Shown here: piece after piece, positions 1,400 to 56,262 of the stretch
How the letters are laid out: each line of letters opens with the position of its first letter
How positions within the stretch are numbered: the first letter of the stretch is position 1
Assembly (NCBI GenBank): GCA_965215565.1
Contig: CBDCDZ010000004.1
Coordinates: 2,848,001 to 2,912,000 of the forward strand
Length of the DNA: 64,000 nucleotides
From: Trueperaceae bacterium
Lineage (GTDB): Bacteria; Deinococcota; Deinococci; Deinococcales; Trueperaceae
Direction: 5' to 3'
Made by a program: the position numbers and the translations under genes
Notes under the pieces: generated by a model
What the model saw: the letters and a program-made list of their open reading frames with translations, nothing else
Told to the model about the DNA's origin: nothing
Databases searched by the model: none

Positions 1400-1510
1400 T
1401 AGCAGTTCCACGACACACTGAGACAGTTGAACGCAGGTATCATCTCTTAAAGTGCGTGCTAAACAGCGTTTCACAAAGTGAGAGTGTCTCTGACCAGATG
1501 ATACCTGCTA
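1400..1510 (+). mobile_element. 111-bp MITE-like repeat copy R1 (no insertions)
   Basis: TAGCAGTTCCACGACACACTGAGAC...CGCAGGTATCATC...AAGTGCGTGCTA...CCAGATGATACCTGCTA. Confidence 0.85.
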
Positions 1511-1558
1511 ATTGTAGAGGAGGGATTCGAGAAATGACGTGGGATTCTAGGCTTTTAT

Positions 1559-1735
1559 TTGCAGGTATCATCTGGTCGCGAGCGCTCTCACCGAAGAGAG
1601 CGTCTTCTAGCACGCACACTGAAGATGAAATTCCGCTCTCAGGCGAAGCCGTCCCGCTAGGCTTCGCCTGAGAGTGGGATGGTTCTTCGTCTGAGACTTG
1701 CGACACTTTATCTCAGTTATGTCGTGGTGCTGTGT
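1559..1735 (-). mobile_element. Repeat copy R2 with three nested ~22-nt insertions (177 bp)
   Basis: Reverse scaffold GCAGGTATCATCTGGTC...TAGCACGCAC...TCTCAGTTATGTCGTGG; 66 extra nt at about 1630-1696. Confidence 0.75.
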
Positions 1736-1736
1736 G

Positions 1737-1847
1737 TAGCAGTTCCACGACATACTGAGACAGTTGAGCGCAGATATCATCCCCCGAAGTGTGTGCTAGA
1801 CTGTTCATTTCTCGCTAAGGGTATCTCTGACCAGATGATACCTGCTA
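1737..1847 (+). mobile_element. 111-bp repeat copy R3 (no insertions)
   Basis: Same ends and motifs as R1, same length. Confidence 0.85.
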
Positions 1848-1919
1848 ATGAAAGCGAGAAGATATGTTTTTTCACGCTTGTTCACAATGCGAAAGCGTGT
1901 CAGGCTACGCCTGGAGGTG

Positions 1920-2171
1920 ATGATGAAAAAGCGTAGTGGGGATAATGAACACTACAAGAGGTGGCGCTTGCTCGCCCCGCTCGGGCTGGGCACGGTGGGT
2001 TTTGGCGCGAGTTTACTGGGTTACGCCGTCGAACTCAGGACGAGGCGGGCGGGCTTTACTACCTGGTTTGCGTGGGGCACGGTGAGTTTAGTCGTCCTCA
2101 ACTCGGGGCTGGCGCTGTTCGGCGAAGCGGTGAAACACCGCGTTCTTCTGGATTTGGAAGAATCAGACTAA
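1920..2171 (+). CDS. Small two-TM membrane protein
   Basis: GGAGG RBS before ATG at 1920/1923; two hydrophobic segments. Confidence 0.65.
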   Translation: MMKKRSGDNEHYKRWRLLAPLGLGTVGFGASLLGYAVELRTRRAGFTTWFAWGTVSLVVLNSGLALFGEAVKHRVLLDLEESD

Positions 2172-6682: not shown

Positions 6683-6859
6683 TAGCAGGTCTCAGCCTTT
6701 CTTAGGCGAAGCCTAGCGGATTGGCTAGCTGGACCTCATCTAGTCTGAAACACTCTCACTGTAGAAAACGTTGATGAGTGCCCACTTTTGGAGATGAAGA
6801 CCAACCAAACCTCGTCTGAGAACTGCGGTAATCTGTCTCAGTGTGTTCTGGAACTGCTA
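6683..6859 (-). mobile_element. Repeat copy R4 with three 22-nt insertions (177 bp)
   Basis: TAGCAGGT[44 nt]CTCATCTAGTC ... GATGAA[22 nt]AACTGCG...TGTCTCAGTGTGTTCTGGAACTGCTA. Confidence 0.7.
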
Positions 6860-7756: not shown

Positions 7757-7759
7757 AAA

Positions 7760-30278: not shown

Positions 30279-30353
30279 GCTAGTGGAAACAGCGTTTTTG
30301 GCTTCAATTACGAGGTCTGAGGTTAAAGGATTGAGAGGTTGTATAGCAAGTAT

Positions 30354-30550
30354 TGGCAGTTCCAAGACATACTGAGACGGATAAGCGCTTACGGAAGTTT
30401 TGGCAACGCCAAAGGTCTCATTGCGCAGCAATAGCGGGATTTCATCATCGAATGTGCGTGCTAGTTGGGCACTTTTCGCAAAGCGAAACGTTGTTTCATC
30501 TAGTGAGCGTGTTGCTTCGCACAACTTCGTACACTCAAACCAAATGATAC
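30354..30550 (+). mobile_element. Repeat copy R5 with four insertions (24, 24, 23, 21 nt); last 6 nt missing
   Basis: TGGCAGTTCCAAGACATACTGAGAC ... CAAACCAAATGATAC. Confidence 0.75.
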
Positions 30551-30661
30551 AGCAGGTATCATTTGGTTTGGGCCAATCTGAGAAGAGAAAACACGCTCTA
30601 GCGCTCACTTAATTGTGATGATACTTGCGTGATTCACGCTCAGTACTTGTGTTGATTGCTA
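30550..30661 (-). mobile_element. Repeat copy R6 (subfamily with AAGTACTGAGC..GAATCACGCA left arm), tail-to-tail with R5
   Basis: CAGCAGGTATCATTTGGTTTG...GATGATACTTGCGTGATTC...ATTGCTA. Confidence 0.75.
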
Positions 30662-30713: not shown

Positions 30714-30867
30714 TAGCAGTTCCACGACACACTGAGACAGTTGAACGCAGGTGTCATCCCTTAAAGTGTGTGCTAATTACGAAGTTTTCCGCAGGAAACA
30801 GCGTTTCACAAAGTGAGAGTGTGCCTGACGGCGTACTTCGTGCACTCTGACCAGATGATACCTGCTA
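30714..30867 (+). mobile_element. Repeat copy R7 = R1 plus 21-nt and 22-nt insertions
   Basis: Nearly identical to 1400-1510 apart from 30776-30796 and 30823-30844. Confidence 0.88.
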
Positions 30868-31310: not shown

Positions 31311-31359
31311 ACTCGAACGAAGACAATAACGCACATCGTGACTATAAAAGGAGAACATC

Positions 31360-32217: not shown

Positions 32218-32502
32218 ATGGCACAAGACAGAGGAAAACGAAGAGGCGGCGGCAAGGATGACCGCAGAGGCGGGCGCGGAAGACGCCGCCCTAAGGTCTG
32301 CCCCTTTTGCACCGGCGAACAAGAAGTGACCGACTACCACGACGCGCGGATGCTGCGCCGCTTCATCTCCGACACGGCGAAAATCTTGCCGCGCCGCCGC
32401 TCGGGAGTATGCGGAAAGCACCAGCGTAGACTCGCGACGACGATCAAGCGGGCGCGGATGTTGGCGATTATTCCGATTACGGAGAAACTGGTGCGCCGAT
32501 GA
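32218..32502 (+). CDS. rpsR: 30S ribosomal protein S18 (Zn-ribbon form)
   Basis: CPFC...KILPRR..CGKHQR. Confidence 0.95.
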   Translation: MAQDRGKRRGGGKDDRRGGRGRRRPKVCPFCTGEQEVTDYHDARMLRRFISDTAKILPRRRSGVCGKHQRRLATTIKRARMLAIIPITEKLVRR

Positions 32503-32548
32503 AGCTCTTAGAGGTATCATCTATGAAGAAGCCTCAGAGGTATCATCT

Positions 32549-33106: not shown

Positions 33107-33130
33107 TTGTTGAGCAAAGCTAGAGAGTAG

Positions 33131-33163
33131 GAAGAGGTCGCGCCGGGCGCGACCTCTTCTTTT
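33131..33163 (+). terminator. Terminator after rplI
   Basis: GAAGAGGTCGCGC / GCGCGACCTCTTC + TTTT. Confidence 0.8.
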
Positions 33164-33198
33164 GATGTAGGTTGCTGGTGCGAGGGCTCCTCGCTCGG

Positions 33199-33771
33199 TT
33201 AGCGCCCTCGAGCTGCCCAATCAACCGCATTGAAGCAGAACCGGTAGGTCTCACTGCAGGCTTCATCCTCAGAGTACGTGAACTTTGCGCCCAAAAAGAG
33301 GTTGCGCCCGCGCTCATCGCTCATAAACGCGGTGACTCTGCCGCTCGCGCCGCTGAATTCTGCGGTACCTTCAGTTGCCGTAAAGGTTGTGCTGACCGCT
33401 TCTCCATCAAACAGTGTCAAAGTGAGGGGGTAGTCGGCGCTCAAATTGTACGTTGCGCCCCGAGTCGCTTCTCTAGCGCCGCTGAACTCGAGCCGAAACC
33501 TCAACCCCACGTCTTCACGAGTTGCGAAAGTGAACCCCGCCGGGCTCACCTCTCTTGTAGCAAGCTCATCCGCACTGAAGTCGAAGTTACCCACCGCTGC
33601 ACCTGTGAGGTGCAAATTGAGTGAAGGTGTGCGGTAGGGCGCGGGCGGATTGATCTGTCCGAGTTGCCAAGTGCTAACGCCTACAGCAATGAGAAGAACG
33701 AGTGCGGCTAGGTTTGGTACGATCTTTGGGCTGAATAAAAACCTGGATTTTGCGACCGGATTGAGTTTCAT
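33199..33771 (-). CDS. Hypothetical membrane-anchored protein
   Basis: AAGGAGG RBS, one TM segment, divergent from LysR gene. Confidence 0.6.
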   Translation of the reverse strand: MKLNPVAKSRFLFSPKIVPNLAALVLLIAVGVSTWQLGQINPPAPYRTPSLNLHLTGAAVGNFDFSADELATREVSPAGFTFATREDVGLRFRLEFSGAREATRGATYNLSADYPLTLTLFDGEAVSTTFTATEGTAEFSGASGRVTAFMSDERGRNLFLGAKFTYSEDEACSETYRFCFNAVDWAARGR

Positions 33772-33910
33772 GTCCGACCTCCTTACTCGCAGGTTAAGAG
33801 GTCGTGCGCGGAGAATCAAAAGCCTTTGGCGTTAGATGCGAGTCTATTTATCCGATTTTTCGATGGACGCACTATACCCGTGTATCACGCTGAATGCGCT
33901 AGACTGAGGG

Positions 33911-34852
33911 ATGAAACTCCAGCAGCTTAGAGCGTTACTCGCCGTCATAGAAGCGGAGAGTTTCTCCGAAGCAGCTCTGGATTTGGGCGTCGCGCAGTCC
34001 AGCTTGAGCTACGCCGTCGCGGAGTTGGAACGCGAACTCGGTGTGAAGCTTTTGCAACGGGGGCGTTTCGGCGCGGAGCCTACCAAGATTGGTACTAAAA
34101 TCGCCGCTCACGCGAGAAGCGTGGTGAAGCTGTCCGAGGTCATTCAGCAAGAAGCGGACCTCTCCAAAGGTGAGGTCAAGGGGACGCTCACCGTGGCTAC
34201 GTTTCGCAGCGCCGCCGGGAAGATTATCCCCAAAGCCATTACGCTATTGAGGCGTGACTATCCTCACCTGAGTGTGCGTTTTATAGAGCGAGATAACGAA
34301 GGTTCAGATGGCAACGCGAAGCGGCAGATGGTCCGTGATCACCTCGCCGACATTGCGTTTGTAGAGAGCGCTGAGGACGATAGCTTACTCGCCTGGGAGC
34401 TTATGCGCGACCCTTACCGCGCTCTGCTCCACGAAAGCGACCCGCGCACGACCCTCGCCTGGTCTGACCTACCGCAAACGTCCTTTATCCTCTCTGACTG
34501 TAACACCTGCGGTAACCACGTCCAGAGGTACGCGCGTGAGCTGAACCTCGAGTTAGAGCCTGCATACAGCGTGCAAGGGGATTCAACAGTCTTGCGCCTA
34601 GTCTCGGAAGGCTTAGGCGTCGGCGTCCTACCCGAATTTGCGATTGATGAATTGCCCAGTAATGTAAAAGTTGTGCCACTAGACAGCCCTTTAGAGCGCG
34701 TTATTTACGTCGCTACCCTGCCCAGCAACCTAAAAATTCCGGCGGTGAGGGTCTTTCTCAACGTGCTCAAAACGCAGTTTCCTGAAAGTGAGTTGCCGAG
34801 GTTCGGGGCGCATAGTCTCTATGGCAAAGAAGTTGAACAGCAAAGAGGTTGA
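33911..34852 (+). CDS. LysR family transcriptional regulator
   Basis: SFSEAA..LGVAQSSLSYAVAELERELGVKL. Confidence 0.93.
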   Translation: MKLQQLRALLAVIEAESFSEAALDLGVAQSSLSYAVAELERELGVKLLQRGRFGAEPTKIGTKIAAHARSVVKLSEVIQQEADLSKGEVKGTLTVATFRSAAGKIIPKAITLLRRDYPHLSVRFIERDNEGSDGNAKRQMVRDHLADIAFVESAEDDSLLAWELMRDPYRALLHESDPRTTLAWSDLPQTSFILSDCNTCGNHVQRYARELNLELEPAYSVQGDSTVLRLVSEGLGVGVLPEFAIDELPSNVKVVPLDSPLERVIYVATLPSNLKIPAVRVFLNVLKTQFPESELPRFGAHSLYGKEVEQQRG

Positions 34853-34861
34853 AAGATGCAC

Positions 34862-34895
34862 AAAAAGAAGCTCGAGCTTGGCTCGAGCTTCTTTT
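34862..34895. terminator. Bidirectional terminator
   Basis: AAAAGAAGCTCGAGC / GCTCGAGCTTCTTTT. Confidence 0.8.
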
Positions 34896-34912
34896 CGTCA
34901 GTCAGACAAACT

Positions 34913-35485
34913 TTAGAAGTGGTAGTTCGCGCCTAAGCCTAAGCGAATAGGGATAGCTAGACCGCCGACGCTCGTCTGTGTACCCGCGACGACGCCGCCG
35001 CCGAAGCCGAAGCCTAGACCTAAGCCTAGTTCACCGAAGAGGCTGATGCTAGGGTCAAGTCTGTAGTTGACACCGCCCACACCCGTCACGTCGAAGGCGA
35101 AGTAGTTGTAGCCTACGGTATTGACCGAGCCGGTGATATAGCCGATGCTAGGTCCACCGCCCGCATATAGGGTGAACTCGTCGTCATCACCGAACGTCGT
35201 GATGTCATGTAGCGAGTCAGCGCCCACGACAAAGTTGAAGCCGAAAAGCGGCTGCAAAGCGAGTCTAAAGCGTAAGTCGCCCCCTAAAAAAGCGTCTTGC
35301 AAGCCGTAGTAGCCCTGCAAAAGCGGGAAGCCGAGCGACCCGCCCGCATACTGCGTCGTGCCGAACGGACCTGCTTGCGCTGAGACCGCCAAGTCGCTCG
35401 CGTCGACGTCATCATCTTCTTGAGCGAACGCCGCCCCCAGACTTAGAACCGCGACGCTCAGTAGTACAACCAAAAGTTTATGCAT
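34913..35485 (-). CDS. Small outer-membrane beta-barrel protein
   Basis: Signal peptide, amphipathic strands, C-terminal YHF. Confidence 0.7.
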   Translation of the reverse strand: MHKLLVVLLSVAVLSLGAAFAQEDDDVDASDLAVSAQAGPFGTTQYAGGSLGFPLLQGYYGLQDAFLGGDLRFRLALQPLFGFNFVVGADSLHDITTFGDDDEFTLYAGGGPSIGYITGSVNTVGYNYFAFDVTGVGGVNYRLDPSISLFGELGLGLGFGFGGGVVAGTQTSVGGLAIPIRLGLGANYHF

Positions 35486-35734
35486 ATATCTTACTCCCTC
35501 CGAGTTTTAAGTGAGAAATTTTAGATATTCCCCACGCTGTCGCCTTTATAACACGCACTTTCGTCACGCCACAAGTAGGACGAACTACAACTTTTGTAAG
35601 TCGGGTTTACAATCTAGGGATCATTCAGACCCAAGATGGCTCTGTCAGCGTGTATCTCTGGAGGCAACGCACGTAATCTCTGTCTCAGATAAGATGGGCG
35701 ATATCCTCCACAAAGTTCGCCGAGACAGTTCTAA

Positions 35735-35866
35735 TAGCAGGTATCATCTGGTTTGAGTGTACGAAGTTGTGCGAAGCAACACGCTCACCGTATAAAACGA
35801 TGTCCAACACGCACATTGTGAGATGATACCTGCGACATTTTGTCTCAGTATGTCTTGGAACTGCTT
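35735..35866 (-). mobile_element. Repeat copy R8 = 111 + 21-nt insertion
   Basis: TAGCAGGTATCATCTGG...GATGATACCTGCG...TGTCTCAGTATGTCTTGGAACTGCT. Confidence 0.85.
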
Positions 35867-36060
35867 TAAGAAGTTCTCGGTTCTTTACGAATGGCAAAGG
35901 CGTAAAAGCAAAACGATACCTGCACGCGGACCGAGGGTAAGTCACAACTATTTTCACCATCCTTAACAGTCCGCCCAACTCTGAAATTATCTAAGCTCTT
36001 AGGTGGCACAGAACGCTTGAGAAGGACTCGAGCCTGAGGTCAACTAGGGAGGAACACATC

Positions 36061-36561
36061 ATGAATACGTATTGGTTAAATAGGATGGGTCTCGGCATTA
36101 TCCTCGTACTAGGTTTGGGCGCTTGCAGCATGTCCAATACAGGAGATGAGGTGGACGCGCAACTCAATACGGGCTACTTCACAGCGCGAAATGTAGAGGC
36201 GGATGCTTGTCTTAGGCTTAACCAGAGTACGAGGAAAGTCACAACTGGGACGTGTGATAGAAATGACCCGGAGAAGCTTTGGCGCTTCACAGAACAAGAA
36301 GCTAGAACTGTTTCGCGTAATGGTCCTGTCACTATGACTAAGACCGTTTTGCAGAGTCGCCTCGGTAATTGCTTATGGTCGGGAGGAAGTACATGGATAA
36401 GATGTAGTGATGAATCTGCAGGTGATGCTATATACCGTGATAACGGCAATAGAACGATCCTTAATAGTTCAGGGAAATGTCTAACTTGGACGAGAGGCAG
36501 AGCCTCAACATCTTTTCAATCATGTACGGGTAGCAACGCTCAGCAGTGGGTTCTGAACTGA
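36061..36561 (+). CDS. Lipoprotein with ricin-B-like (beta-trefoil) domain
   Basis: Lipobox LGAC; three CL...C...W units ending NAQQW; lower GC than flanks. Confidence 0.65.
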   Translation: MNTYWLNRMGLGIILVLGLGACSMSNTGDEVDAQLNTGYFTARNVEADACLRLNQSTRKVTTGTCDRNDPEKLWRFTEQEARTVSRNGPVTMTKTVLQSRLGNCLWSGGSTWIRCSDESAGDAIYRDNGNRTILNSSGKCLTWTRGRASTSFQSCTGSNAQQWVLN

Positions 36562-36660
36562 GCGAGCACCCGCAAATTTGCTTAGGGTTGTTTCCCTACC
36601 GTTTACAGTATGAGCGTATCCTACTAAACTCGGTACCCCGTCCGTTCGCGGCGGGGTTTC

Positions 36661-37011
36661 TTACTCTTCGCGGCTGCGCTCGAGGTAGCGCCGCTTGACC
36701 TCTCGAGGCTGAGGCGTCGCGCGGTTACAAAGCGGCAGGTCTCCCCAGCGCACCCTATACGCCTCTATGTGCGCCGCCTCGTCCGCTTGCGGCACGCGGC
36801 TATAGGTGTAGCGCCAGTAGTGAGCGCGCTCGGCGATACAGGCGTTTTTAGCGAGGTGCTGACGGACGCGGTTAGGAACGTCTCTGGCCGACTGACCGAT
36901 ATAGATCGTCCGTTTCTCCTCGTTAGCGAGTTCGTACACGCCGGGCATCGCGTCGCGCCCACGTTGCGCAGGCAGCGCGCTCAGCTTGCGCCAGCGTGCG
37001 CTAATCGGCAT
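36661..37011 (-). CDS. GIY-YIG-like small protein
   Basis: PGVYEL...IYIGQS...RVRQH...E...PLCN. Confidence 0.65.
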   Translation of the reverse strand: MPISARWRKLSALPAQRGRDAMPGVYELANEEKRTIYIGQSARDVPNRVRQHLAKNACIAERAHYWRYTYSRVPQADEAAHIEAYRVRWGDLPLCNRATPQPREVKRRYLERSREE

Positions 37012-37182
37012 ATTGGCGGGGCTCGAAACTTGGTGAGCGAACACTGCACGCCAAAGTTCCAACCAAATAGGGCGTAATGCGCCGCAGCGCAGCGCTAGGT
37101 ACTGCAGTGCTAGGTACCAGAGAGGACCTCTTCACGGCTAGGTCCGCACCCTCATCATCCTGCCCTCATCATTTTGCTGTGA

Positions 37183-38094
37183 CTAATTCTCATAGCCGAG
37201 TTCGCGTAGCGCCTCGGGGTCTTCGCGCCACGCCTTGTGGACGACTACCTCTAAGTCCAGGTAGATTTTCTCGCCGACGAAAATCTCTAGCTGCTTGCGC
37301 GCCGTGCGTCCAATTTCACGGATCATACTGCCACCCTTGCCCAACACGATCATGCGGTGGTTGCTCCTCTCCACCCAGATTTCCGCCAGGATATAGAGGG
37401 GTTTGCCCTCCTCCTCTGGCTCGCGCACCTCGAGAACTTGCACGGCGACGGCGTAGGGAAGCTCTTGGCGCAGGTGGGTCATGGCGCTCTCGCGGATGAG
37501 TTCGCCCAGCCAGTCCTCTCGCGTTTGGTCACTACGAATATTTGCAGGAAAGAAAAAAGGACCTTCGGGCAGTTCGGTGAACAGGTCTTCGCGGAGCGCG
37601 TAGACGGCTTCAGGGTCATCTAGAGCGCTGAGGCTATAAACTTTGCTGACGCTAGGCAAGAGGTCTTGGTAGAGGTTGAGCGCCTCCTCTGGATACTTCG
37701 CCACGTCGAGCTTGTTGCCGATAAGGTAGATGGGCGTTGCCGGGTCGATGCCTTGCAGGAGCCGCGCCACCTCTTTGTCTTCATCATTAGGAGGTCTGCG
37801 CAAGTCCACGAGCCACAAGATGCGGTCGACGTCGGTAATCGCCGTTCTCACCTCGCGGTTCATATAGTCGCCTAGCGCGTCCTGGGCGCGGTGATAGCCC
37901 GGCGTATCTACGAAGATGAGCTGTCGGTCTCCCTCGCTGTAGACGCCCCGCACGCCGCGCCGAGTGGTCTGCGGTTTGGAGGTAATCGGCGCGACTTTAA
38001 CGCCTAAAAGCGTATTGAGCAAAGTGGATTTGCCGACGTTGGGCTTGCCCAGAATGGCGACGAACCCCGAATAGGTGATCTCTGAGTCAGACAT
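37183..38094 (-). CDS. era: GTPase Era
   Basis: GKPNVGKST, PQTTR, DTPG, NKLD, KH domain; GAGGAG RBS before ATG 38094. Confidence 0.95.
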   Translation of the reverse strand: MSDSEITYSGFVAILGKPNVGKSTLLNTLLGVKVAPITSKPQTTRRGVRGVYSEGDRQLIFVDTPGYHRAQDALGDYMNREVRTAITDVDRILWLVDLRRPPNDEDKEVARLLQGIDPATPIYLIGNKLDVAKYPEEALNLYQDLLPSVSKVYSLSALDDPEAVYALREDLFTELPEGPFFFPANIRSDQTREDWLGELIRESAMTHLRQELPYAVAVQVLEVREPEEEGKPLYILAEIWVERSNHRMIVLGKGGSMIREIGRTARKQLEIFVGEKIYLDLEVVVHKAWREDPEALRELGYEN

Positions 38095-38114
38095 AGTGCT
38101 CCTCAAGCTTGATT

Positions 38115-38243
38115 TAGCAGGTATCATCTGGTCAGCTACACCCTTACTAAAGAGAACATCGTTTCCTTCGGCAAACTTCGTAATTAGCACGCACTCTAGA
38201 TGATATCTGCGAAGAAGTGTAGCAACGATAAGTGGAACTGCTA
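38115..38243 (-). mobile_element. Repeat copy R9 with 21-nt insertion
   Basis: TAGCAGGTATCATCTGGTC...TAGCACGCAC...GATGATATCTGCG...GTGGAACTGCTA. Confidence 0.8.
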
Positions 38244-38253
38244 ATTACCTCAT

Positions 38254-38292
38254 AAAAAAAGACCCATGAGCGAAAACGCTTAGGGTCTTTTT
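38254..38292 (-). terminator. Terminator after tRNA-fMet
   Basis: AAAAAGACCC...GGGTCTTTTT hairpin. Confidence 0.7.
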
Positions 38293-38298
38293 CTGTAT

Positions 38299-38375
<77 letters not shown>

Positions 38376-38626
38376 ACGCAGCAAAAATAAGCTTACTACT
38401 TCATGGCCGCGTCTGTCAAGGTGCAATAAACTTAGAGGTTCTGTGGCTGCGCTTAGCTGAGAAAGACCGCCACCCGGCGGCGGATCATCTAACGCAGTTA
38501 TCGGTGGTGCGGGGTTCGCTAGAGGTTTCATTCCGGTGGGCATCACATGCTCGAGTGCTGTCAAGGCGTAGCGTTGCAAGCTTCCTCGACTCGGGCACCG
38601 GTCTATTTCGCCCGAATCAGTCTATA

Positions 38627-38737
38627 TAGCGATTATCAGAAGTACTGAGCTTGAATCACGCAGGTATCATCACCGAAAGTGCGTGCTAGACGATAGTGTA
38701 TCTCGTGAGATTGGCTCAAACCAGATGATACCTGCTA
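38627..38737 (+). mobile_element. 111-bp repeat copy R10 (second subfamily, no insertions)
   Basis: TAGCGATT...AAGTACTGAGCTTGAATCACGCAGGTATCATC...CCAGATGATACCTGCTA; TA on both flanks. Confidence 0.85.
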
Positions 38738-39164
38738 TATTTGCCTGAAAAATGGCAGATATACCGCCGCACCCTTCAAAAACGCAATTTTTACGGGATA
38801 TGGCTGTGAATTTAGTGACTTCCCACATTGTCTATGAGAGCGATTTTTCGTGTCATTAGCCGCTTAACCCCCTCCCTGATGGAGTTTTATGGGATGTGGC
38901 TAATAATCTACACAAAAACCCTTAACAATTTTAATAATTGCCCGCGTTAGGTTTGTAGACAACTGAGGACGGCCTCCCCTCAGAAATCCACAACGTACCT
39001 ACTCGTAACATAGCGCAATCAAGTTACAACCTGTTTAGGTGCAAATACGCAAGTCGTCAAAGGTTCGAAAGAAATTTCGTAAACCCGTAGATGGGTTGCG
39101 GTTCAGGGCGGCTGGTTAAACCAGTCACATTCCATAAAGCTGGGCAGCAGAAAGAGAGTCATTT

Positions 39165-40835
39165 ATGAAGGCAAAGCCACCTACAACGTCATGTGCCGCT
39201 AGAGGGCAGGGAAAGCTAAGCTTACTTGCCGTAGGTGTCGTGTTATTCCTCGCTGCGTGTAGTAGCGGTTTAGAGGGAGACCTACCCGACTTAGAGGCGA
39301 ACGCCTCCACGAAAACAGCCGAGTCGCGCGTTTCGTCCTACAGCGACAACGCTGAGGAGAGAACCTCGGGCTTAGTGATTAACAGCAGTACAGACCTAGA
39401 ACTTACGCACGACGTGGAGCGCGGTCAGCAGCTCCTCGGTCTGCGTTTCAACAACGTCAAGGTGCCGCGCGGCGCAGATATTAAGGATGCGTACATTCAG
39501 TTCAAAGCGGACGAGGCGGACTCGGGGTCTGTCAAGGTGCGCATCTACGCGCACGATACAGACGACGCCTCAGGTTTTTCGCAGGGCTACAACAGCGGCA
39601 TCTCCAAGCGGAGCAAGACCTCCAAGTCGGTAAGCTGGAGCATCGACTCTTGGAAAAAGCGCGGCGAGCGCGGTAGCAAGCAGCGCACCCCCGATATCGA
39701 CGACGTCGTTCAAGAGGTCACGGACCGCAAAGGGTGGGACTACGGCAACTCGTTGGCGTTCATCATCTCAGGTAGCGACAAGAATGACCGGCGCGTCGCC
39801 GAGTCTTACCGCGGCGATAAGGGTGGTGCACCTCAACTCGTCATCAAGTATAGTGGCGGCGAGAGCGGGTCCCGCTCAGCGCCGGTCAGCTCTGGACCCA
39901 AAGTGGGCAGCGGCGACGCCGACTACTACGTCTCGCCTAGCGGCAGCGACAGCAACAGCGGCTCGAAGAACAGGCCCCTCAAAACGCTCTATAAAGTCTC
40001 GCAGGTAGTTAAACCCGGCGACACGGTCTTCTTACGCGGCGGCACCTATAGAGGGAAGTACCAAACCTACGTCGGCTACGACCGCGGAGCCTTCAAAAGA
40101 GACGGCAAAAAAGGCAAGCCGATTACCATCATGAGCTACCCCGGCGAGCGGGCCGTTGTCGACGGCAGCCTCCGCAGCTACAAGCAGTACAAGAGTTTGT
40201 GTAGCCCCTCCCTCTTTAAGATCACGGCGGACTACTACGTCGTTAAGAACATCACCTTTAAGAATAGCGCCGGTCGCGGTCTATATCTGAGAGGTAAGGG
40301 CAACGTTGTCGACGGCGTCAAGTCGTACGACAACCACTGTGACGGCATCTACATGTCCGGCAGCAACAACCGCGCCGAAAACTTCGAGTCTTACAACAAC
40401 TACAGCAAGCAGAACGACGGCGACTCGGCGGACGGCATCAAGATGCTCGGCGGTTCCGACAACGTCATCAGAAACTGCCTCGTCTACAAGAACTCCGACG
40501 ACGGCATTGACATCTGGGATACGAAGAAGACGCTCGTCGAGAACTGCACCGCTAACGACAACGGCAGAGGCAAGACGGGCGACGCGAACGGACTCAAGTT
40601 GGGCTCTAGCAGCTCCAAGAACACCGGCAACGTAGCGCGCAACAACAAAGCTGAGGGCAACCGGATCAACTTTACGACGAACGGCAGCACGGGCGTCACC
40701 TTGACCGGCAACATCTCTCGCGGCGCGGACTCCGTAGGCTTTAGCATCGGTAAGGGCAACAAAGCGTGCGACAACAAGAGCTATAGCGAGCGGAACTCTG
40801 TAAACTACAACCGAGGGTGTGGTAATAGCTGGTAA
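39165..40835 (+). CDS. Lipoprotein with right-handed beta-helix (polysaccharide lyase family 9-like) domain
   Basis: Lipobox LAAC; YYVSPSGSDSN, PGDTVFLRGGTY, NSDDGIDIW, GDANGLKLG. Confidence 0.75.
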   Translation: MKAKPPTTSCAARGQGKLSLLAVGVVLFLAACSSGLEGDLPDLEANASTKTAESRVSSYSDNAEERTSGLVINSSTDLELTHDVERGQQLLGLRFNNVKVPRGADIKDAYIQFKADEADSGSVKVRIYAHDTDDASGFSQGYNSGISKRSKTSKSVSWSIDSWKKRGERGSKQRTPDIDDVVQEVTDRKGWDYGNSLAFIISGSDKNDRRVAESYRGDKGGAPQLVIKYSGGESGSRSAPVSSGPKVGSGDADYYVSPSGSDSNSGSKNRPLKTLYKVSQVVKPGDTVFLRGGTYRGKYQTYVGYDRGAFKRDGKKGKPITIMSYPGERAVVDGSLRSYKQYKSLCSPSLFKITADYYVVKNITFKNSAGRGLYLRGKGNVVDGVKSYDNHCDGIYMSGSNNRAENFESYNNYSKQNDGDSADGIKMLGGSDNVIRNCLVYKNSDDGIDIWDTKKTLVENCTANDNGRGKTGDANGLKLGSSSSKNTGNVARNNKAEGNRINFTTNGSTGVTLTGNISRGADSVGFSIGKGNKACDNKSYSERNSVNYNRGCGNSW

Positions 40836-40865
40836 CTAACTGCAAAGCTAAACTCATCAGAAGCA

Positions 40866-40902
40866 AGAAAGAGCGAGTGGGTCTTCCACTCGCTCTTTCT
40901 TA
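40866..40902. terminator. Terminator hairpin
   Basis: AAGAAAGAGCGAGTGG / CCACTCGCTCTTTCTT. Confidence 0.8.
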
Positions 40903-40933
40903 TTCATACTAGCTCTGACAGTTGTGCGAAATA

Positions 40934-41068
40934 TAGCAAGTATCATAATTACTGGTCTTGAATCACGCAGATATCATCACAATCAAGTGCGTGCTCGTCG
41001 ATGTTCTCCAGAGTGAGATTGGCTCAAACCAGCTCCGAGCTTTGCGAGACAGATTTTGATACCTGCTA
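40934..41068 (+). mobile_element. Repeat copy R11 with ~24-nt insertion in right end
   Basis: Like R10, with CTCCGAGCTTTGCGAGACAGATTT at 41033-41056; TA on both flanks. Confidence 0.8.
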
Positions 41069-41081
41069 TAGAACCGAGAAA

Positions 41082-42050
41082 TTAGGCGTCCGGCTCTATC
41101 CAGTACCTCTTATGAGGCAGTTCGTCGTCAGCGGTGTAGGTGTCCAGTTCGAAAACTTCTAGTATCGCCATCGCTCGCCGCGTCTCTTCCGGCGTCGTTT
41201 TGTTTCGCCATTTTTTAACGAGATGCTCGCGCTCTTGGGTGTTGCCGAGCATCTGCCGCGTCTTCTCATCCGACTTATAAGTTGAGTTAGACGCCACGTG
41301 AAGCTGCTTATTCATAAGATCGGTGTCGGGCAGCTCGAGCTTGCGCGCAAGTTCTTTAAGCACAGGCGCGGGCTCCAACACGAGCTGCTCGTAAGAGGTG
41401 ATAACCCAGTCGTCGGTGGCTTGTCTGAGCGGCACCGCCATCTCGAAGCACCAGGACAGCACGCAGCGCTCTATGAACGAGCCCGAACGCGCCACCTTCT
41501 CGGCAAAAGTCAACTGCTGGTCCGTGAAGTGCTCCCGGTAGCTGCTATTCATAAACGACTCGAGCCGACAGATTTCCTCGTAAGACACGGCTACTGCCAT
41601 CGGATGCCGTAACAGGAAGACAATACGCCCGTTAAAGGTGTCGCGGAACCAGTTGACCCTGTCTTCGCCGCCGTGAATGACCTTGAAGACGATGCGGCGC
41701 GTGAGGTAGCGGTAGTGTTTGTTGTAGAAGAAGTTCGTGTCTTTAGTGTGCAGTCTCCCATCACAGATGCGCCTGAAGTAGGACTCGAGCGCCGCCGTCG
41801 CCCCTTCGCTGTAAAACGCTTCCCAAGTGTCGAACCCCAACTCGTCGCGGATTCTCTTATGCCTGAGGTTGAGCGGCTCGTCGATCGCCTTGAAAGTAGG
41901 CTGGCTCAGGATAAGCTCCGTGAGCCAGGTGGAGCCGCCGCGCGGTCTGGCGAAGACAAAGACGTTGGGCGAGCCGTCAGGTCTATGGAGGTTCGTTGCA
42001 GATTTGGTGAGCCGTATAAGCTTTTCTTTAGCCGTGTAAGTCAGATTCAT
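41082..42050 (-). CDS. Sulfotransferase family protein
   Basis: PRGGSTWL (5'-PSB-like), LLRHP, SYEQL; start position uncertain. Confidence 0.75.
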   Translation of the reverse strand: MNLTYTAKEKLIRLTKSATNLHRPDGSPNVFVFARPRGGSTWLTELILSQPTFKAIDEPLNLRHKRIRDELGFDTWEAFYSEGATAALESYFRRICDGRLHTKDTNFFYNKHYRYLTRRIVFKVIHGGEDRVNWFRDTFNGRIVFLLRHPMAVAVSYEEICRLESFMNSSYREHFTDQQLTFAEKVARSGSFIERCVLSWCFEMAVPLRQATDDWVITSYEQLVLEPAPVLKELARKLELPDTDLMNKQLHVASNSTYKSDEKTRQMLGNTQEREHLVKKWRNKTTPEETRRAMAILEVFELDTYTADDELPHKRYWIEPDA

Positions 42051-50187: not shown

Positions 50188-52470
50188 ATGAAAACTTTCG
50201 CGGAGGAAGAAAGCTTGAAAAGCGCCCTCATCGACGTACTGAGCCAAGATGAGGTCGATGGCGATGAGCTTTTAGCGCTGTCTAACGCGCTCACCAAGTC
50301 TGACCCCAACGCAGTTCGCTTCTCGGTTGACGCAAGTCTTATCAGCCGGTTAGGGCGCGAACTCGTGGCGCGGCAAGAAACGGCGGTTGCTGAACTCGTT
50401 AAAAACGCCTACGACGCAGATGCGCGTAAAGTCACGCTAGTTTTTTCAGAAGCGGACGCGCCGGGGGGTAGGCTCGAGCTAACCGATGACGGCTTAGGGA
50501 TGACGCGAGACCAGCTCGTGAACGGTTTTATGCGACTCGCCTCAGGGCAAAAGGTGGACGAACCCATCTCGCCGAGGTACAAACGCCAGCGCGCAGGGCG
50601 TAAAGGCATCGGGCGCTTTGCAGTGCAGCGGCTCGGGGACAGACTCACGATTACGACGCAGACGAAGGGCAGTTCGGTTGCGCTCAGAGTGATCGTAGAT
50701 TGGGACAGGTTTGCGGCAGGTCAAGATTTGGCGAGCATCTCCAGCCGTATCACTGAAATCCCTAAGCAAAAAGAAGAGGGGACGACGCTCCTCATCGACG
50801 GACTGCGCGAAGCCTGGAACGAAGCGGCGATCAAAAAGGTCTACAAATACGTCTCAGACCTTATCCAGCCCTTTCCGCTCTCTGAGAAGGGCGAAGCCCG
50901 CATTGACCCCGGCTTCAAAATTGACCTCTTGCGCGAGGTTGCAGGAGAATTCGAGCTTGTCGCCGACGAAACGACGGAGATTTTTCAGCACGCGCTGGCT
51001 GAGATAGAAGGCTACGTCGATAATAAGGGAAAGGGATTTTGGTCTATTGCGTCGGATAGGCTCGAGCTTGCTGAAATTGATCAATCTATTAGGGATAGCC
51101 GAGAAAATAGAGAACTTGCTTTTAACAGTTTGCAAAATACAAGGCTGAAGGCTTACTACTTCATCTACAACGGTTCTGGAGCCAATTTTCTCCCTCGCTC
51201 AGCGAACAAAATGATCAGAGATTTAGCCCAAGAAAGGGGCGGCATCAGAGTTTACCGAAACGGCTTCCGAGTCTCGCCCTACGGCGACTCTGACAATGAT
51301 TGGCTTGGTCTGGACGAGCTTGCTAGACGCCGCTCTTTTCTACCTGCTATTGGCAATATCAACTTCTTCGGCTTCATTGAAATAGTCGACATAGGAGGCG
51401 ACTACTTTGAGGAAACATCCAGCCGCGAAGGACTCCTAGAAAACTCGGCATTTCAAGAGTTACAAGACTTCACGCATAGAGTACTCAAAGCTGCAGCCAC
51501 CAAAGTTGCTGAAGCGAGAGGTAAGAAAATCACGGCGAGTCAAAAAGACTATAAAACGGACCCCTCGGCGGTTATTACGAAAGCGATCAAATCGGTTGAT
51601 AGGTTGGCGAAAGAGCTGGTCGGCGCAGGTCAATCTGATGAGGCGAAGCAACTTAAAGGCGTTTCAAAACAGCTCAAAATGGCGGCTGCTATTCAGAGCG
51701 ATGTTCTCGAAGAACTTTCGATGCTGCGCGTACTTGCTAGCTTAGGTCTCACCATCAGTGAGTTCACCCATGAAGTTCAGCAGACTTTGGGCGCGGCTTC
51801 CCTGAGTGCCAAGCATATTTTAGAAGCTACATCACCTGATTCAGAGCGGCGTGAGATTGCTCATGACTTATTAGTCAACATTCAGAGGTTTCAGGCTTAC
51901 GCAGTGTATTTTCAGAAGTCAGTCTCTGACAATATCAACCGGGAACTCGAGCCACAAGACGCGGCTAAAGTTGCTAAAAATTTTGTAAATACGGTGCAGC
52001 TCGCAGCAAAAAGCGTTGGTATTTGCGTAGAACAGCCCGAGGTTGTCGGTACTGATCTTATGACCTGTCCAATGCACTCTTCCGAATGGAGTTCGGTTTT
52101 GTTCAATCTCTATACAAACGCTCGTAAGGCGATTGCGAGAGCGAGAAGTGACGGAAAAATTTTCATCCGAGTTGGAAAAGAGGGTAAAAAGGTCTATTTG
52201 GAATTTGCGGATAACGGTGACGGTATACCTAAGGAGAATGAGGAGCGAATCTTCAACGCATTTTTCACAACGACTGGAACCGCAGGGCGCTACGCCACTG
52301 ACGAAGAAGAAATTCAAGGTACGGGCTTGGGTCTGAAGATTGTAGACGATATTGCTACGAGCTACAACGGTGACGTTTCTTTGGTTGCGTCCCAAAAAGG
52401 GTATGCAACTTGCTTTAGAATAGAATTTCCTGAAGCGACCCCAAAGGAACTTGAGGCTTATGGCTACTAA
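50188..52470 (+). CDS. GHKL/MORC-type ATPase fused to histidine kinase
   Basis: N-term ELVKNAYDA, DDGLGM, GRKGIGRFA, GTT; C-term FTHE, NLYTNA, DNGDGI, FFTT, GTGLGL. Confidence 0.88.
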   Translation: MKTFAEEESLKSALIDVLSQDEVDGDELLALSNALTKSDPNAVRFSVDASLISRLGRELVARQETAVAELVKNAYDADARKVTLVFSEADAPGGRLELTDDGLGMTRDQLVNGFMRLASGQKVDEPISPRYKRQRAGRKGIGRFAVQRLGDRLTITTQTKGSSVALRVIVDWDRFAAGQDLASISSRITEIPKQKEEGTTLLIDGLREAWNEAAIKKVYKYVSDLIQPFPLSEKGEARIDPGFKIDLLREVAGEFELVADETTEIFQHALAEIEGYVDNKGKGFWSIASDRLELAEIDQSIRDSRENRELAFNSLQNTRLKAYYFIYNGSGANFLPRSANKMIRDLAQERGGIRVYRNGFRVSPYGDSDNDWLGLDELARRRSFLPAIGNINFFGFIEIVDIGGDYFEETSSREGLLENSAFQELQDFTHRVLKAAATKVAEARGKKITASQKDYKTDPSAVITKAIKSVDRLAKELVGAGQSDEAKQLKGVSKQLKMAAAIQSDVLEELSMLRVLASLGLTISEFTHEVQQTLGAASLSAKHILEATSPDSERREIAHDLLVNIQRFQAYAVYFQKSVSDNINRELEPQDAAKVAKNFVNTVQLAAKSVGICVEQPEVVGTDLMTCPMHSSEWSSVLFNLYTNARKAIARARSDGKIFIRVGKEGKKVYLEFADNGDGIPKENEERIFNAFFTTTGTAGRYATDEEEIQGTGLGLKIVDDIATSYNGDVSLVASQKGYATCFRIEFPEATPKELEAYGY

Positions 52471-53635
52471 ATATCTTTACTTAGACGACGAAAAGCCTGA
52501 AGCTGTGCGACCTTTTTTGCGAGAGTTGCAGCAGCGCGGTAGAGACCTCGAGATTGAACATCATCCTCCTTTGCCCTACCACAACCAACTTCCCTGGCTC
52601 GATCTGCAAACCTTTGACGGTCTTATTCTTGATTTGCGCTTAGACCAATTTCCAAATTGGCAGCCAGACTCTGAGGCAGGCAAGGCGGAGTTTAGAGCGA
52701 CGACGCTCGCTCAGGAAATTCGTACACGGGCGACGGAAGACTCTAAAGCCTTTCAAACGCCCATTGTGCTTTTGTCAACGGATGAGAGGTTGCAACAGAG
52801 CTACACGCGCGATGACACGAGTCACGACCTCTTCGATCTGAAGTGTCTCAAGTCGGATATCAGTAATGATGCGAAAAGAGCAGAAGTGATAGCTTATCAG
52901 CTTTTGTCCTTAGCTAGGGGCTACCAGGAGATTGCTGCGGTGCGTTCCAAGAAGAGAGGTCCAGGTTCTCAGTTTCACAAGTTTCTCGGTCTCGAAGAAC
53001 CTCCCGAATTTCTCGACCCAAGAATTCTGAGTTACTTTGAAGGTAGGGGAAGTCCTCTACCCGCGCATGAGTATGCTCGTTTCATTCTTCGCGAGCTGCT
53101 TAGCAAACCGGGACCGCTTATTGATGAGTTGACATTAGCCGCGCGTCTCGGCGTGGACACTGCCACTTCAGAAGATTGGGAAAAGCTCAAAGGCAAGCTT
53201 AGTGAAACAGCTAGATTTACTGGACCGTTTAGAGAAGGTTGGCCGCGTTGGTGGGCTGTTCCCCTCGTGACCTGGTGGCGCTCCCTAGCTGACGATACGC
53301 TGCCCCTACGAACAATGCCCGCCTCTCAGCGCGTCGAATTGCTCCGCGAGCACACGGGCTTGCAGGAGTTAGTACCCGCAAAGCCTATCCGTAAAGGATA
53401 CAGCGAGACCTTTTGGACGCTCTGTCAAGCATTACAACAGCCTCTTGACCCTCGCGATGGACTCATCATTGACAGACCGAACGCGAAGTTATGGCAAGAT
53501 AAGCTTTACGTCTCGCTCGAGGCTGAGCTAACTCGCGAGCGTCGCATGAAGGGGCTGCGACTTGACCCGCTCGATAAAGGGAGATTGCCGAGACTAAGAG
53601 CCAGATTGCAAGGTGACGGAGTAGCCTCTTCCTAG
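52460..53635 (+). CDS. Receiver-domain protein with unknown C-terminal region
   Basis: YLDDE, LILDLRLD, IVLLS, conserved K; overlaps kinase stop. Confidence 0.75.
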   Translation: MATKYLYLDDEKPEAVRPFLRELQQRGRDLEIEHHPPLPYHNQLPWLDLQTFDGLILDLRLDQFPNWQPDSEAGKAEFRATTLAQEIRTRATEDSKAFQTPIVLLSTDERLQQSYTRDDTSHDLFDLKCLKSDISNDAKRAEVIAYQLLSLARGYQEIAAVRSKKRGPGSQFHKFLGLEEPPEFLDPRILSYFEGRGSPLPAHEYARFILRELLSKPGPLIDELTLAARLGVDTATSEDWEKLKGKLSETARFTGPFREGWPRWWAVPLVTWWRSLADDTLPLRTMPASQRVELLREHTGLQELVPAKPIRKGYSETFWTLCQALQQPLDPRDGLIIDRPNAKLWQDKLYVSLEAELTRERRMKGLRLDPLDKGRLPRLRARLQGDGVASS

Positions 53636-53636
53636 C

Positions 53637-54347
53637 GTGAATGCGAGGCGAGCAAAGGAGTTGAGGCGGGCAAAGGAGTTTAGAAAAGAACGAGCGCGTG
53701 AACTGCGAAGCCTCGCGGAGATTTTGCAAGTGGCAGGACTCGTTAGGGACGCAAGCCCGCTCCTCAGTGCTGCGGGACAATGCGGAGATAGCGCTCCACA
53801 CGGCGAGCTTTTGTGGAGCTATGAATTTGCCGGTCTCGAGTTCAACCTTGATTTTGACGAGCTACGACATTCGAAACCCGAAGGGGCAGAACTCGACACA
53901 GTTGAGTTGAGCGTGTCGCTCAGTGGTATGTGTTTAGACGAGAGCCTATCCGATGATCCTTTTACGCACCTAAGTGTCAACGTCGTTTTGCACGGCTTGA
54001 GCCAAAACGCTGAACCTCTGATGGACGCTTGGCATCTCGACAAACATCTAGGGGGTAAGAGTTCGTTTGAGCACCCCGACTATCACTTTCATCACGGCGG
54101 TAGGAAAATCTGGGAATCGCAAAACTTCGATTACGGGTCACATCTTTTGCTTGAGTCTCCCCGCCTAGACCATAAACCATTGGACGGGATTTTAGCTGTG
54201 AACTTTGTGCTCGCCAACTTTGCGGGAGCAGCTTGGCAGACCTTAAAAGCTGAAGAGATAAGGTACATGGAACTGGTTCACGACGCTGAAAAGCGCTGCC
54301 ATTTAGCCTACGTTCACGCTTCCCTCGAGCGTCTACAAAAGCTGTGA
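53637..54347 (+). CDS. Hypothetical protein with WHLD...HPxYHFHHGG and PRLxH motifs
   Basis: Starts 1 nt after upstream stop; His-rich putative active site. Confidence 0.7.
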   Translation: MNARRAKELRRAKEFRKERARELRSLAEILQVAGLVRDASPLLSAAGQCGDSAPHGELLWSYEFAGLEFNLDFDELRHSKPEGAELDTVELSVSLSGMCLDESLSDDPFTHLSVNVVLHGLSQNAEPLMDAWHLDKHLGGKSSFEHPDYHFHHGGRKIWESQNFDYGSHLLLESPRLDHKPLDGILAVNFVLANFAGAAWQTLKAEEIRYMELVHDAEKRCHLAYVHASLERLQKL

Positions 54348-54348
54348 G

Positions 54349-56058
54349 TTAGCGCTTCATTCGCCTGTCACGCAGATAGTGATATCCCTCCCGCAAGAGG
54401 GTGCATCCATCCTCTTCTAGCCCTAAGCCTTTTCGCAGTACAAGCGCGTCACCGATATCTAAAGCATCCTCGAGGTCACCATCTCTTAGAGATGTATCTA
54501 TCGCTTTGTACGTAACATCGAGGTCATCTTCAGAGAGGTGATGAGGCAGCGCCACTAAAACTTTACGCGCCTCGCCGGGCTCGAGCTTGAGCATCCCACC
54601 CCCGAGGCTATGCCCTTCTATTTCGGCGCTTAAAAAGGTTAAAGAGGTGTACCAGGAGATGACGAGGTGCTTGATGTCTACGCTCATAGACTCTTCATAA
54701 ATCGTTTCGGGAAGCTCAACGGTGTGCAGTGTGTTGGGTGCAGGTGCGCCGAGGGTGTTGTGGACGAGCCTCGGTCCGCTATTCGACATGTAGGTGAGTA
54801 GCGCCGCGCCGCGTTTGACGTGCGGAACTGCGTACCAGGGGTTTCGCTTGCTGACCTTGTAGCCTTGACGGACTTTTTCGCCTTCTCGCCCTAAGTAAGC
54901 CTGGACTCCTGCCGGTAGGCGCTCGAAGGGCTGATTTGTGGGTATCTCGAGCAACCACTTCTTCTCCTCTTCGAGGCGTTGCCAATCACTTTCTGACACA
55001 AAGAGACCGCTCAAGTTGCTGCTGCGGCGGAGGCAGGGCGCGCAGTAGTGCATAGGTATATCGAAGGTCTCTATCTCCTGCTGCGACAGGTGGAAGAAAC
55101 CATTAGCACCCGTGACGTACCCGATACCGATACGAGCCACTGAGCCGAATGTTTTGACGTGCGCGCGTAGTGCGAGGTGACGGTAGAGGGCTCGCACTTT
55201 AGGCTCGAGAAGATGCCCGAGTAAGCGCGTTCGCCCCGCTTTGAGGCTCGAGACCTCTTCGCGGCTGAGCGTCTTCACGTGACCCACCGCGCTCAAAGAT
55301 TTTTCGGCAATAAACGCTTCTAAGCGATCTGCGTCTTTTACGTCAACGAGGTTGAAAACGCTCGCCTCACCTCCTTTCGCTTCGCCCAACACAATAAAGG
55401 TGTCTTCTCCTAAAGTGGGAAAAAGGCGCTTTTGGAAGGTGAGGATATTAAGTGTGGCGAATTGGTTGAGGAGAAACTCAAGAACATGCCTAGCATACGC
55501 CGCGTGACCCAACTCCGCAGGCGCAACCATCGCTAAGCGTCCTCCAGGTTTGATGAGGCTAACGGCGTGCACCAAAAAAGGAGCCCACGAACTTGCGTGT
55601 CTGGGCAAATTGACGCCTAAGTCTGCTGCGCGCTCGAGCCCGAGCGCTCGTTCTTTTCCCTTGAAGCTTTGATAGCGGATAAAGGGCGGATTGCCTACAA
55701 CTGCCTCAAACGCCTCCACAGGCGAAGAGCGGTCAAAGTTGTCCTCAAAGAAGCTATCCGACTCGAAAAAGTTACCTTGCCATAGCTTGACAATCTGATA
55801 GTGGCTCTCTAAGTATTTTTTGCTCGCGTTATAGACAATCTCGTCTAGCTCAATGCCATAAATCTGTTCGCTCGGGCGAGCAACTTGACGCCCAGAGGCT
55901 TCTAAAAAGACGCCGTTGCCGAAGCTAGGGTCGATCACATTAAAGTCCGTTTGCCGCACTGCCCAATGCACCATGAGATTAACCGCTTTATCAGGTGTGT
56001 AGTAGGCACCAAACGCTTTGGCGCGTTCACCTGTCGGTGCGGTCCGAATGTCACTCAC
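54349..56058 (-). CDS. Gamma-class N6-adenine DNA methyltransferase (Eco57I/TaqI-like family)
   Basis: GAYYTP, DPSFGNGVF, GNPPF, IGYVTGAN; start placed at GTG 56058 because the upstream extension is repeat-derived. Confidence 0.85.
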   Translation of the reverse strand: MSDIRTAPTGERAKAFGAYYTPDKAVNLMVHWAVRQTDFNVIDPSFGNGVFLEASGRQVARPSEQIYGIELDEIVYNASKKYLESHYQIVKLWQGNFFESDSFFEDNFDRSSPVEAFEAVVGNPPFIRYQSFKGKERALGLERAADLGVNLPRHASSWAPFLVHAVSLIKPGGRLAMVAPAELGHAAYARHVLEFLLNQFATLNILTFQKRLFPTLGEDTFIVLGEAKGGEASVFNLVDVKDADRLEAFIAEKSLSAVGHVKTLSREEVSSLKAGRTRLLGHLLEPKVRALYRHLALRAHVKTFGSVARIGIGYVTGANGFFHLSQQEIETFDIPMHYCAPCLRRSSNLSGLFVSESDWQRLEEEKKWLLEIPTNQPFERLPAGVQAYLGREGEKVRQGYKVSKRNPWYAVPHVKRGAALLTYMSNSGPRLVHNTLGAPAPNTLHTVELPETIYEESMSVDIKHLVISWYTSLTFLSAEIEGHSLGGGMLKLEPGEARKVLVALPHHLSEDDLDVTYKAIDTSLRDGDLEDALDIGDALVLRKGLGLEEDGCTLLREGYHYLRDRRMKR

Positions 56059-56150
56059 TAGGCTGAGTCTACCAGGTCTGTGAAGGTTGGAAATGGGGCT
56101 CGAGCCTCCACCACTCACAACGCCACAACATGAAGAATTTGACACATTTA

Positions 56151-56262
56151 CAGCAGGTATCATCTGGTCATAAACGCCCTCAGTCTGCAAATTCAACGTC
56201 TGGCACGCACGTTTCGAGGTGATACTTGCGTTATTTTAGCTCAGCAGATGTAGTGAACGCCG
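56151..56262 (-). mobile_element. Degenerate repeat copy R12
   Basis: CAGCAGGTATCATCTGGTC...GGCACGCAC...GGTGATACTTGCG...CTCAG. Confidence 0.65.

Follow-up and report, generated by a model that had tools for sequence, protein, structure and literature searches.

A non-coding repeat of a Trueperaceae genome with two left-arm subfamilies and two types of target duplication

In a 64,000-nucleotide stretch of DNA from a Trueperaceae bacterium (assembly GCA_965215565.1, contig CBDCDZ010000004.1, positions 2,848,001 to 2,912,000; hereafter the window, numbered from its first base), a dispersed repeat of about 111 bp is present in twelve copies. We conclude, with a probability of roughly 75%, that it is a non-coding miniature inverted-repeat transposable element (MITE) with two left-arm subfamilies that leave different target duplications, and that it was likely moved in trans by two ISY100-like transposases of the IS630 family no longer found in the source genome (G000). 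The label "ISY100-like" presumes kinship from shared features and general knowledge, the partner elements having been set beside ISY100 by description only. A MITE normally depends on a single transposase and should disappear with it. Here, one scaffold whose left end can be exchanged occurs in G000 and in another genus, and its scars correspond to the different IS630 partners with hardly an exception, which suggests partner switching as a route to long survival. The mechanism itself is not new, IS630-driven MITEs being well known; new are the several partners and two target chemistries of a single scaffold. In the parts of the literature available to us, no description of this repeat or of 3-bp IS630 duplications was found; ISfinder and TnCentral, which may already list such elements, lay outside that scope, and a 2024 MITE census (bioRxiv 10.1101/2024.01.18.576219) may hold the repeat.

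Target duplications, element limits and mobility

The G000 genome was searched with a hidden Markov model built on 76 ungapped copies, with the reversed chromosome as control. On the chromosome (contig C4; coordinates are written C4:position), 574 matches were obtained, representing 525 loci (271 on the forward and 254 on the reverse strand), 286 of them with both ends; there were no matches on the reversed chromosome or on the three small contigs. The loci cover 1.6% of the chromosome, and only 6 of the 525 lie mostly inside genes, as placed by a simple gene caller (3833 genes on G000). The repeat has the features of a MITE, being short, non-coding, intergenic and present in high copy number. 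Its terminal inverted repeats are imperfect: positions 1-5 and a box near positions 20-26 pair across the ends, and positions 6-19 do not. Mean identity among the 76 ungapped copies is 74%, 12 pairs reach 97% and no pair is identical, so amplification was not very recent.

Scars were scored by taking TAGC...GCTA as the full element and shuffling as background. A 3-bp duplication borders 128 of the 262 complete copies (shuffled mean 7.8, maximum 15), and TA flanks were found in 72 of the complete copies lacking it; duplications of 4 bp or longer occur in at most 4 of the 262, which is the chance level. The type of scar follows the left-arm subfamily, three free bases in A and TA in B. The two clusters of subfamily A carry the 3-bp scar in 113/151 (A1) and 13/18 (A2) copies, together 126/169 with no TA-only case, and cluster B carries TA in 71/77 copies with no 3-bp scar. 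The remaining 16 left arms, singletons and pairs, belong mostly to old, scarless copies. The target of subfamily A is palindromic (W-W-C-NNN-G-W-W).

The original prediction, drawn from the window sequence alone, read the flanking TA as a sign of TA targeting. This holds for subfamily B only; the larger subfamily A duplicates three free bases, and most copies in the window carry such non-TA duplications, which the prediction did not report. An element with GCAG...CTGC ends and TA as its scar was rejected. Since the 3-bp duplications flank the TA and the empty sites lack the whole TAGC...GCTA, the element includes its terminal TA.

The repeat is mobile, because both orthologous and paralogous empty sites exist. 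The comparison of orthologous intervals covered portions of two congeneric genomes, 1.6 Mb in G001 and 0.4 Mb in G002, and the element is absent from 68 of 90 and 25 of 31 intervals, respectively; several apparently shared copies proved to be independent insertions. The presence/absence test that the prediction had suggested thus came out in favour of mobility. The empty sites it called for were also found, but a single TA is not their general form: of 12 tightly aligned sites, 4 fit the element plus three bases and 2 fit the element plus two. Copies lying inside other repeats, when compared with empty paralogs, gave the same values, with three additional bases in six A copies and two in three B copies.

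Candidate IS630 partners and a proposed exchange of left ends

Autonomous IS630 elements with matching ends and the same scars exist in relatives, namely in G001, G002 and G142, a genome of another Trueperaceae genus, and none was found in G000. This supports the proposal of a non-autonomous element moved in trans by an enzyme of the IS630/Tc1-mariner type, as does the presence/absence polymorphism. The candidate partners of subfamily A are IS630 elements of 991-1051 bp in G001 and G002, whose proteins match HTH_Tnp_IS630 (PF01710), DDE_3 (PF13358) and NF033545 above the cut-off. They are encoded in two overlapping frames, with a D-34-E spacing in most rows of the alignment. The right end of one of them (L016; L-numbers denote individual element loci) agrees with the A consensus at 27/36 bases and with the best copy at 31/36, over a stretch that includes the last transposase codons. 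Duplications of 3 bp flank 8 of 10 A-type partner copies in the congeners and 8 of the 12 copies with both ends of a related IS630 in G142 (18 loci examined), 16/22 in total, and no TA/TA flanks were seen among them. A target bias of W-W-S-NNN-S-W-W is common to these partners and MITE subfamily A.

A search with the B-arm pattern led to two TA-flanked IS630 elements in G142, L145 and L159, whose right ends agree with the B consensus at 27 and 26 of 36 bases, compared with 24 and 20 for the A consensus; the margin is real but modest. The TA target characteristic of IS630 was accordingly seen in L145, L159 and MITE subfamily B, and not in the A-type partners or MITE subfamily A. The tree, built on 22 catalytic domains, places the five 3-bp elements whose ends read TAGCA on one branch (100/99), together with three elements of unassigned scar, and the seven TA elements fall outside it. 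A second 3-bp pair, L014 and L026, is distant and stands apart from the TAGCA branch; together with L028, these loci (L014 in G000, L026 and L028 in G001) represent a distant IS630 lineage with TACCAA ends and apparent 3-bp duplications. In all three relatives, it is the left MITE arm that matches the IS630 right ends; the MITE right end shares the terminal bases and the box only.

As the original prediction stated, an inner 12-mer, GCAGRTATCATC (element positions 34-45), repeats the terminal GATGATACCTGC (positions 98-109) in inverse orientation. The family's spread was traced with a core pattern made of the inner and terminal repeats; the pattern fixed the arm sequence, so arm identity is set by it, and the spacing range was left wider. 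It is present in 10 of 299 genomes of the phylum, in 7 genera, all of them Trueperaceae, and in 0 of 197 genomes of the other four families. G142 and G143 carry further copies with an altered inner arm, and a metagenome scan for the perfect core returned 3 loci. The core spans 78-81 bp across 11 representatives, whose loops are 49% alike. Elements consisting of the core with both terminal repeats are L194 and L231 (80-81 bp, TA on both sides), L216 is the core alone (78 bp, no clear scar), and G000 holds one 80-bp core candidate. In G079, 101-bp copies have an inner repeat that is an intact, complete end.

Among 36 right ends examined in G142, 26 have a scar-bounded left end, falling into three classes with the same right end. 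Class 1 (99-101 bp) starts like the resident 3-bp IS630 and has 3-bp scars in 6/6 copies; class 2 (98-107 bp) has a different arm and TA in 11/11, and class 3 (111-132 bp) has TA in 8/9, so that classes 2 and 3 together show TA in 19/20. Across the ends of the G000 copies, the box near positions 20-26 agrees, reading GAGACA in A1 and GCTACA in A2.

Judged from these sequence comparisons, the inner inverse repeat would be a former terminus, the left end of an original MITE of 80 bp that was extended by IS630 right ends. That older MITE may have had perfect terminal repeats of 14 bp, and on repeated occasions the right end of a resident IS630, about 21 or 31 bases, would have been added to it on the left, turning its previous left end into the inner repeat. 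The boxes lying 20-26 bases from the two termini would then have adapted to the new enzyme, and the way each new partner staggers its cut in the target would have determined the scar. Copy number may have risen by gap repair from sister chromosomes after excision, as general knowledge of cut-and-paste transposition suggests.

Several observations weigh against this reconstruction. Among the complete copies, 61/262 have no exact duplication (30 of these are one mismatch off), and the other 6 of the 12 tight empty sites contain extra indels. In G142, 10/36 ends have no scar, and left ends were chosen by requiring a duplication; therefore only the link between class and scar is informative there. 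Box agreement between the ends is looser in subfamily B, and visual inspection does not bring it out in the G142 classes. Searches of G000 gave neither an intact ISY100-like transposase nor fragments of one; the partners were identified in other species, and subfamily B is matched only modestly. An autonomous element ending in the invariant GGTATCATC was likewise sought and not found (2 chance or MITE-like matches in 81 genomes), which leaves growth from 80 to 111 bp as a presumed direction. Finally, composite copies that had moved again are in helical phase in 10/15 cases, compared with 97/177 of all composites, which is no clear signal for a phasing discussed below.

Within G000, three DDE_3 matches were obtained, all with unrelated ends, and no long element with matching ends around a transposase was found. 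An IS630 at C4:1933813 between two MITE copies was considered as a composite partner and rejected, as its ends differ and the second copy lies in another IS630 frame.

Published work allows the repeat to be set beside known systems. RUP of Streptococcus pneumoniae is a 107-bp intergenic MITE of about 100 copies attributed to IS630-Spn1 (PMC2229807). It likewise has IS630-like ends and inserts into, and breaks, transposase genes, as does the copy within an IS630 frame at C4:1933083; however, RUP is described with TA targets and one partner (PMC2229807), whereas the present scaffold leaves mostly 3-bp scars in free sequence, serves at least two partner types and has a single IS-like end. Correia/NEMIS and ERIC are 100-200-bp repeats with terminal TA and size classes, features shared by this MITE, and promoter, IHF and RNase effects have been proposed for them (PMC2229807, PMC10969869). 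In contrast to their long stem-loops, this MITE folds weakly, and a promoter at the B right end is unsupported: an outward TG-n-TAnnnT form is not enriched at B right ends facing genes (10/19 vs 24/52, p=0.79). ISY100, of the IS630/Tc1/mariner group, has 24-bp imperfect ends bound by an N-terminal HTH, carries a DDE domain and moves by cut and paste; 30-bp mini-ends are sufficient, and TA was duplicated in 34/39 in vitro products (PMC2170065, PMC2831304). The partners resemble it in length (~950-1000 bp), HTH_Tnp_IS630, DDE_3 and, mostly, the D-34-E spacing, but ISY100 has one frame and TA targets, whereas the partners have two overlapping frames and one branch makes 3-base duplications. The SNR repeats of Deinococcus radiodurans, from the same phylum, are also mobile non-coding repeats, of 60-215 bp (PMC11276467); the core pattern is unmatched in the 197 genomes from the phylum's other families, and SNR are set apart by description. 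Closely related natural transposases with a 2-base (TA) and a 3-base (free) stagger offer a ready way to ask why the mariner superfamily keeps to TA, and a starting point for a mariner-type tool that accepts other targets as well.

Length constraint, folding and alternative explanations

Insertion-free copies are exactly 111 bp in 97/115 cases, and equal length was found in 73% of 1487 random copy pairs. The G000-G001 intergenic indel rate of 0.12 per mismatch predicts about 3 indels per copy pair, and the length constraint is therefore real, as the original prediction had supposed. Family lengths cluster at 80, 101 and 111 bp, two and three helical turns apart, which would fit phased pairing of the two ends, an interpretation that is partly supported. 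Two close ends can be brought into register by their position on the helix, a physical argument for which no supporting paper was found in the literature searched. A close twin is present for 71/114 insertion-free copies and for 30/178 longer copies.

In another reading of the same MITE, the invariant right end and its inner inverse copy persist because they are recognised by a host protein or by a second enzyme, which would bend or bridge the two ends or act on a stem in a transcript; the scaffold would then be an adaptor and not only a relic. We regard this as unlikely. The spacing of the 12-bp pair stays at 78-81 bp in seven genera despite the wider search range, with loops as little as 35% alike; copy-specific changes are rarer in the inner (16/1000) and right (6/628) arms than in the loop (157/3973); no insertion sequence (IS) end bears the GGTATCATC motif; and 172/292 copies between same-strand gene pairs are oriented with transcription (p=0.003). 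On the other hand, the amplified 101-bp TA class of G142 has a degenerate inner arm, and in 8 old copies shared with relatives the inner arm is kept no better than the loop (0.71 vs 0.76), the alignments being poor. A bolder form, in our judgement rather doubtful, would make the right end and its inner copy a transposase-independent module read by a host factor, and the 80-bp core a universal adaptor that docks on resident ISY100-type transposases by taking their end, with lengths set by helical turns. If that were true, the core would persist across genera while its helpers change, and IS110 elements and 21-25-nt cassettes would home into the same motif.

Capture of IS ends would be unnecessary if independent MITE families had converged on one right end by gene conversion or recombination. 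Recombination is available, since copies nest in or beside each other and chimeras of arms and loops exist, but the left arms match IS right ends as far as base 36, including the last transposase codons, and we hold convergence to be very unlikely; it would in any case alter how the arms were joined and not what moves the element. The alternative offered by the original prediction, a structured RNA or single-stranded DNA element, here spreading by an RNA or HUH route, seems scarcely credible. A 12-13-bp stem is predicted in all copies, folding z-scores are -0.7 to -2.2 for single copies and -0.9 to -2.2 as means, 23 B copies show joint changes at pairs 37:106 and 45:98, and G000 encodes one HUH (Y1) domain. 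However, consensus folds show no other helix, most of the top covarying pairs do not pair and are mostly lineage markers, and both compensatory changes are linked in a single lineage, so the covariation check did not reveal the multi-helix fold with independent covariation of a structured non-coding RNA. Rfam matched only a tRNA in the window and nothing at the repeat copies. The 2- and 3-bp target duplications and IS630-like ends mark a DDE reaction, and the HUH domain is embedded in a restriction-modification protein that adjoins a different repeat. Nor does the repeat form the hairpin doublets flanking an HUH transposase gene that define REPIN/RAYT systems, the sole Y1 domain being internal to a 1322-aa frame.

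Window copies, passengers and other repeats

All twelve positions given in the original prediction hold a copy, but 30354 and 30550 belong to one nested pair. The copies are as follows.

1400..1510, forward strand: MITE copy of subfamily A, insertion-free, 111 bp; 3-bp duplication ATT/ATT
1559..1732, reverse strand: A-like copy, older, 174 bp with nested cassettes; no duplication left
1737..1847, forward strand: subfamily A copy, insertion-free, 111 bp; flanks GTG/ATG, one mismatch
6683..6859, reverse strand: subfamily A copy, 177 bp, cassettes nested in both repeat arms; duplication AAG/AAG
30344..30661, reverse strand: subfamily B copy, 112 bp minus its passenger, right end split by the A copy at 30354-30556; TA/TA flanks
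30354..30556, forward strand: subfamily A copy, 203 bp, four cassettes, nested in the B copy at 30344-30661; duplication TAT/TAT
30714..30867, forward strand: subfamily A copy, 154 bp, two cassettes, upstream of rpsF; duplication TAG/TAG
35735..35866, reverse strand: subfamily A copy, 132 bp, one 21-nt cassette; duplication TTA/TTA
38115..38243, reverse strand: subfamily A2 copy, 129 bp, GCTACA box at both ends; duplication AAT/AAT
38627..38737, forward strand: subfamily B copy, insertion-free, 111 bp; TA/TA
40934..41068, forward strand: subfamily B copy, 135 bp, one cassette; TA/TA
56151..56262, reverse strand: B-like copy, old, 112 bp, decayed left arm; TA/TA flanks

The three insertion-free copies of exactly 111 bp (1400-1510, 1737-1847 and 38627-38737) and the TA on both flanks of the copies at 38627 and 40934 (R10 and R11 of the prediction) were all confirmed. 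In the copy at 1400..1510, the left arm that resembles an IS630 right end occupies 1400-1435, the inner repeat 1433-1444 and the invariant right end 1497-1510, with subterminal boxes at 1419-1425 and 1485-1491. The AAGTGCGTGCTA box, reported as conserved, is exact in only two window copies (1450 and 38677), degenerate in the rest and lost in other genera. The nested A copy at 30354-30556 finishes with seven bases (30550-30556) that are reverse-complemented relative to the expected end, a junction micro-inversion. The orthologous G002 intervals of the copies at 38115, 38627 and 40934 contain no element; assembled contigs of three sequencing runs, compared with window positions 28000-42000, gave no usable empty site. 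The predicted lack of a transposase also held: in a Pfam scan of the 55 window proteins (13 of them without any family), none matched a transposase at E<=1e-8.

Passengers are common in the family, 196 of 311 anchored copies (some overlapping) carrying at least one insert, mostly of 20-25 nt, at a few fixed sites. In the window, hairpin cassettes of 20-25 nt occur in the copies at 1559-1732, 6683-6859, 30354-30556, 30714-30867, 35735-35866, 38115-38243 and 40934-41068. Similar cassettes interrupt IS630 frames in L021, in L029 and at C4:1932600-1933250, which shows that they also occur outside the MITE. By description, the 20-25-nt cassettes at fixed MITE sites resemble the small dispersed repeats of Nostoc (PMC5861425); the resemblance concerns the passengers and not the scaffold. 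Eight left junctions of IS110 type lie at one and the same base of the MITE right end, seven of them with a full element. A second MITE family, of about 100-140 bp, has A2-like ends on both sides, an unrelated interior and 3-bp flanks in the copies read; it was likely moved by the same A-type transposases.

C4:638753, 681666, 1227050, 1291031, 2530238, 3107102, 3453283 and 4136898: IS110-type junctions in the MITE right end
C4:4280236, 1394172, 1768380, 4294169, 4075170 and 1151639: copies of the second MITE family

The MITE has also landed in at least three further intergenic repeat families of high copy number (C4:1041301, 630906 and 2710741, with paralogs), and tandem arrays of the right end alone are present at C4:179790-179950 and C4:1994337-1994460, with units of 27 bp and 23 bp. 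The Y1 (HUH) transposase-like domain mentioned above (L323, C4:3786234-3786551) lies in frame between methyltransferase motifs of the 1322-aa restriction-modification-like protein and is followed by short peptide repeats resembling translations of the G000 AAGGGGTTGAAACCCCTT repeat; it is possibly RAYT-like or a mobile in-frame element. Contig C3 (23,751 bp) matches itself over its full length and reads as a doubled small plasmid. Within the window, positions 50188-56058, of lower coding score, hold a possible defence island comprising a 760-aa protein with two HATPase domains, two proteins without a family and an Eco57I-type methyltransferase.

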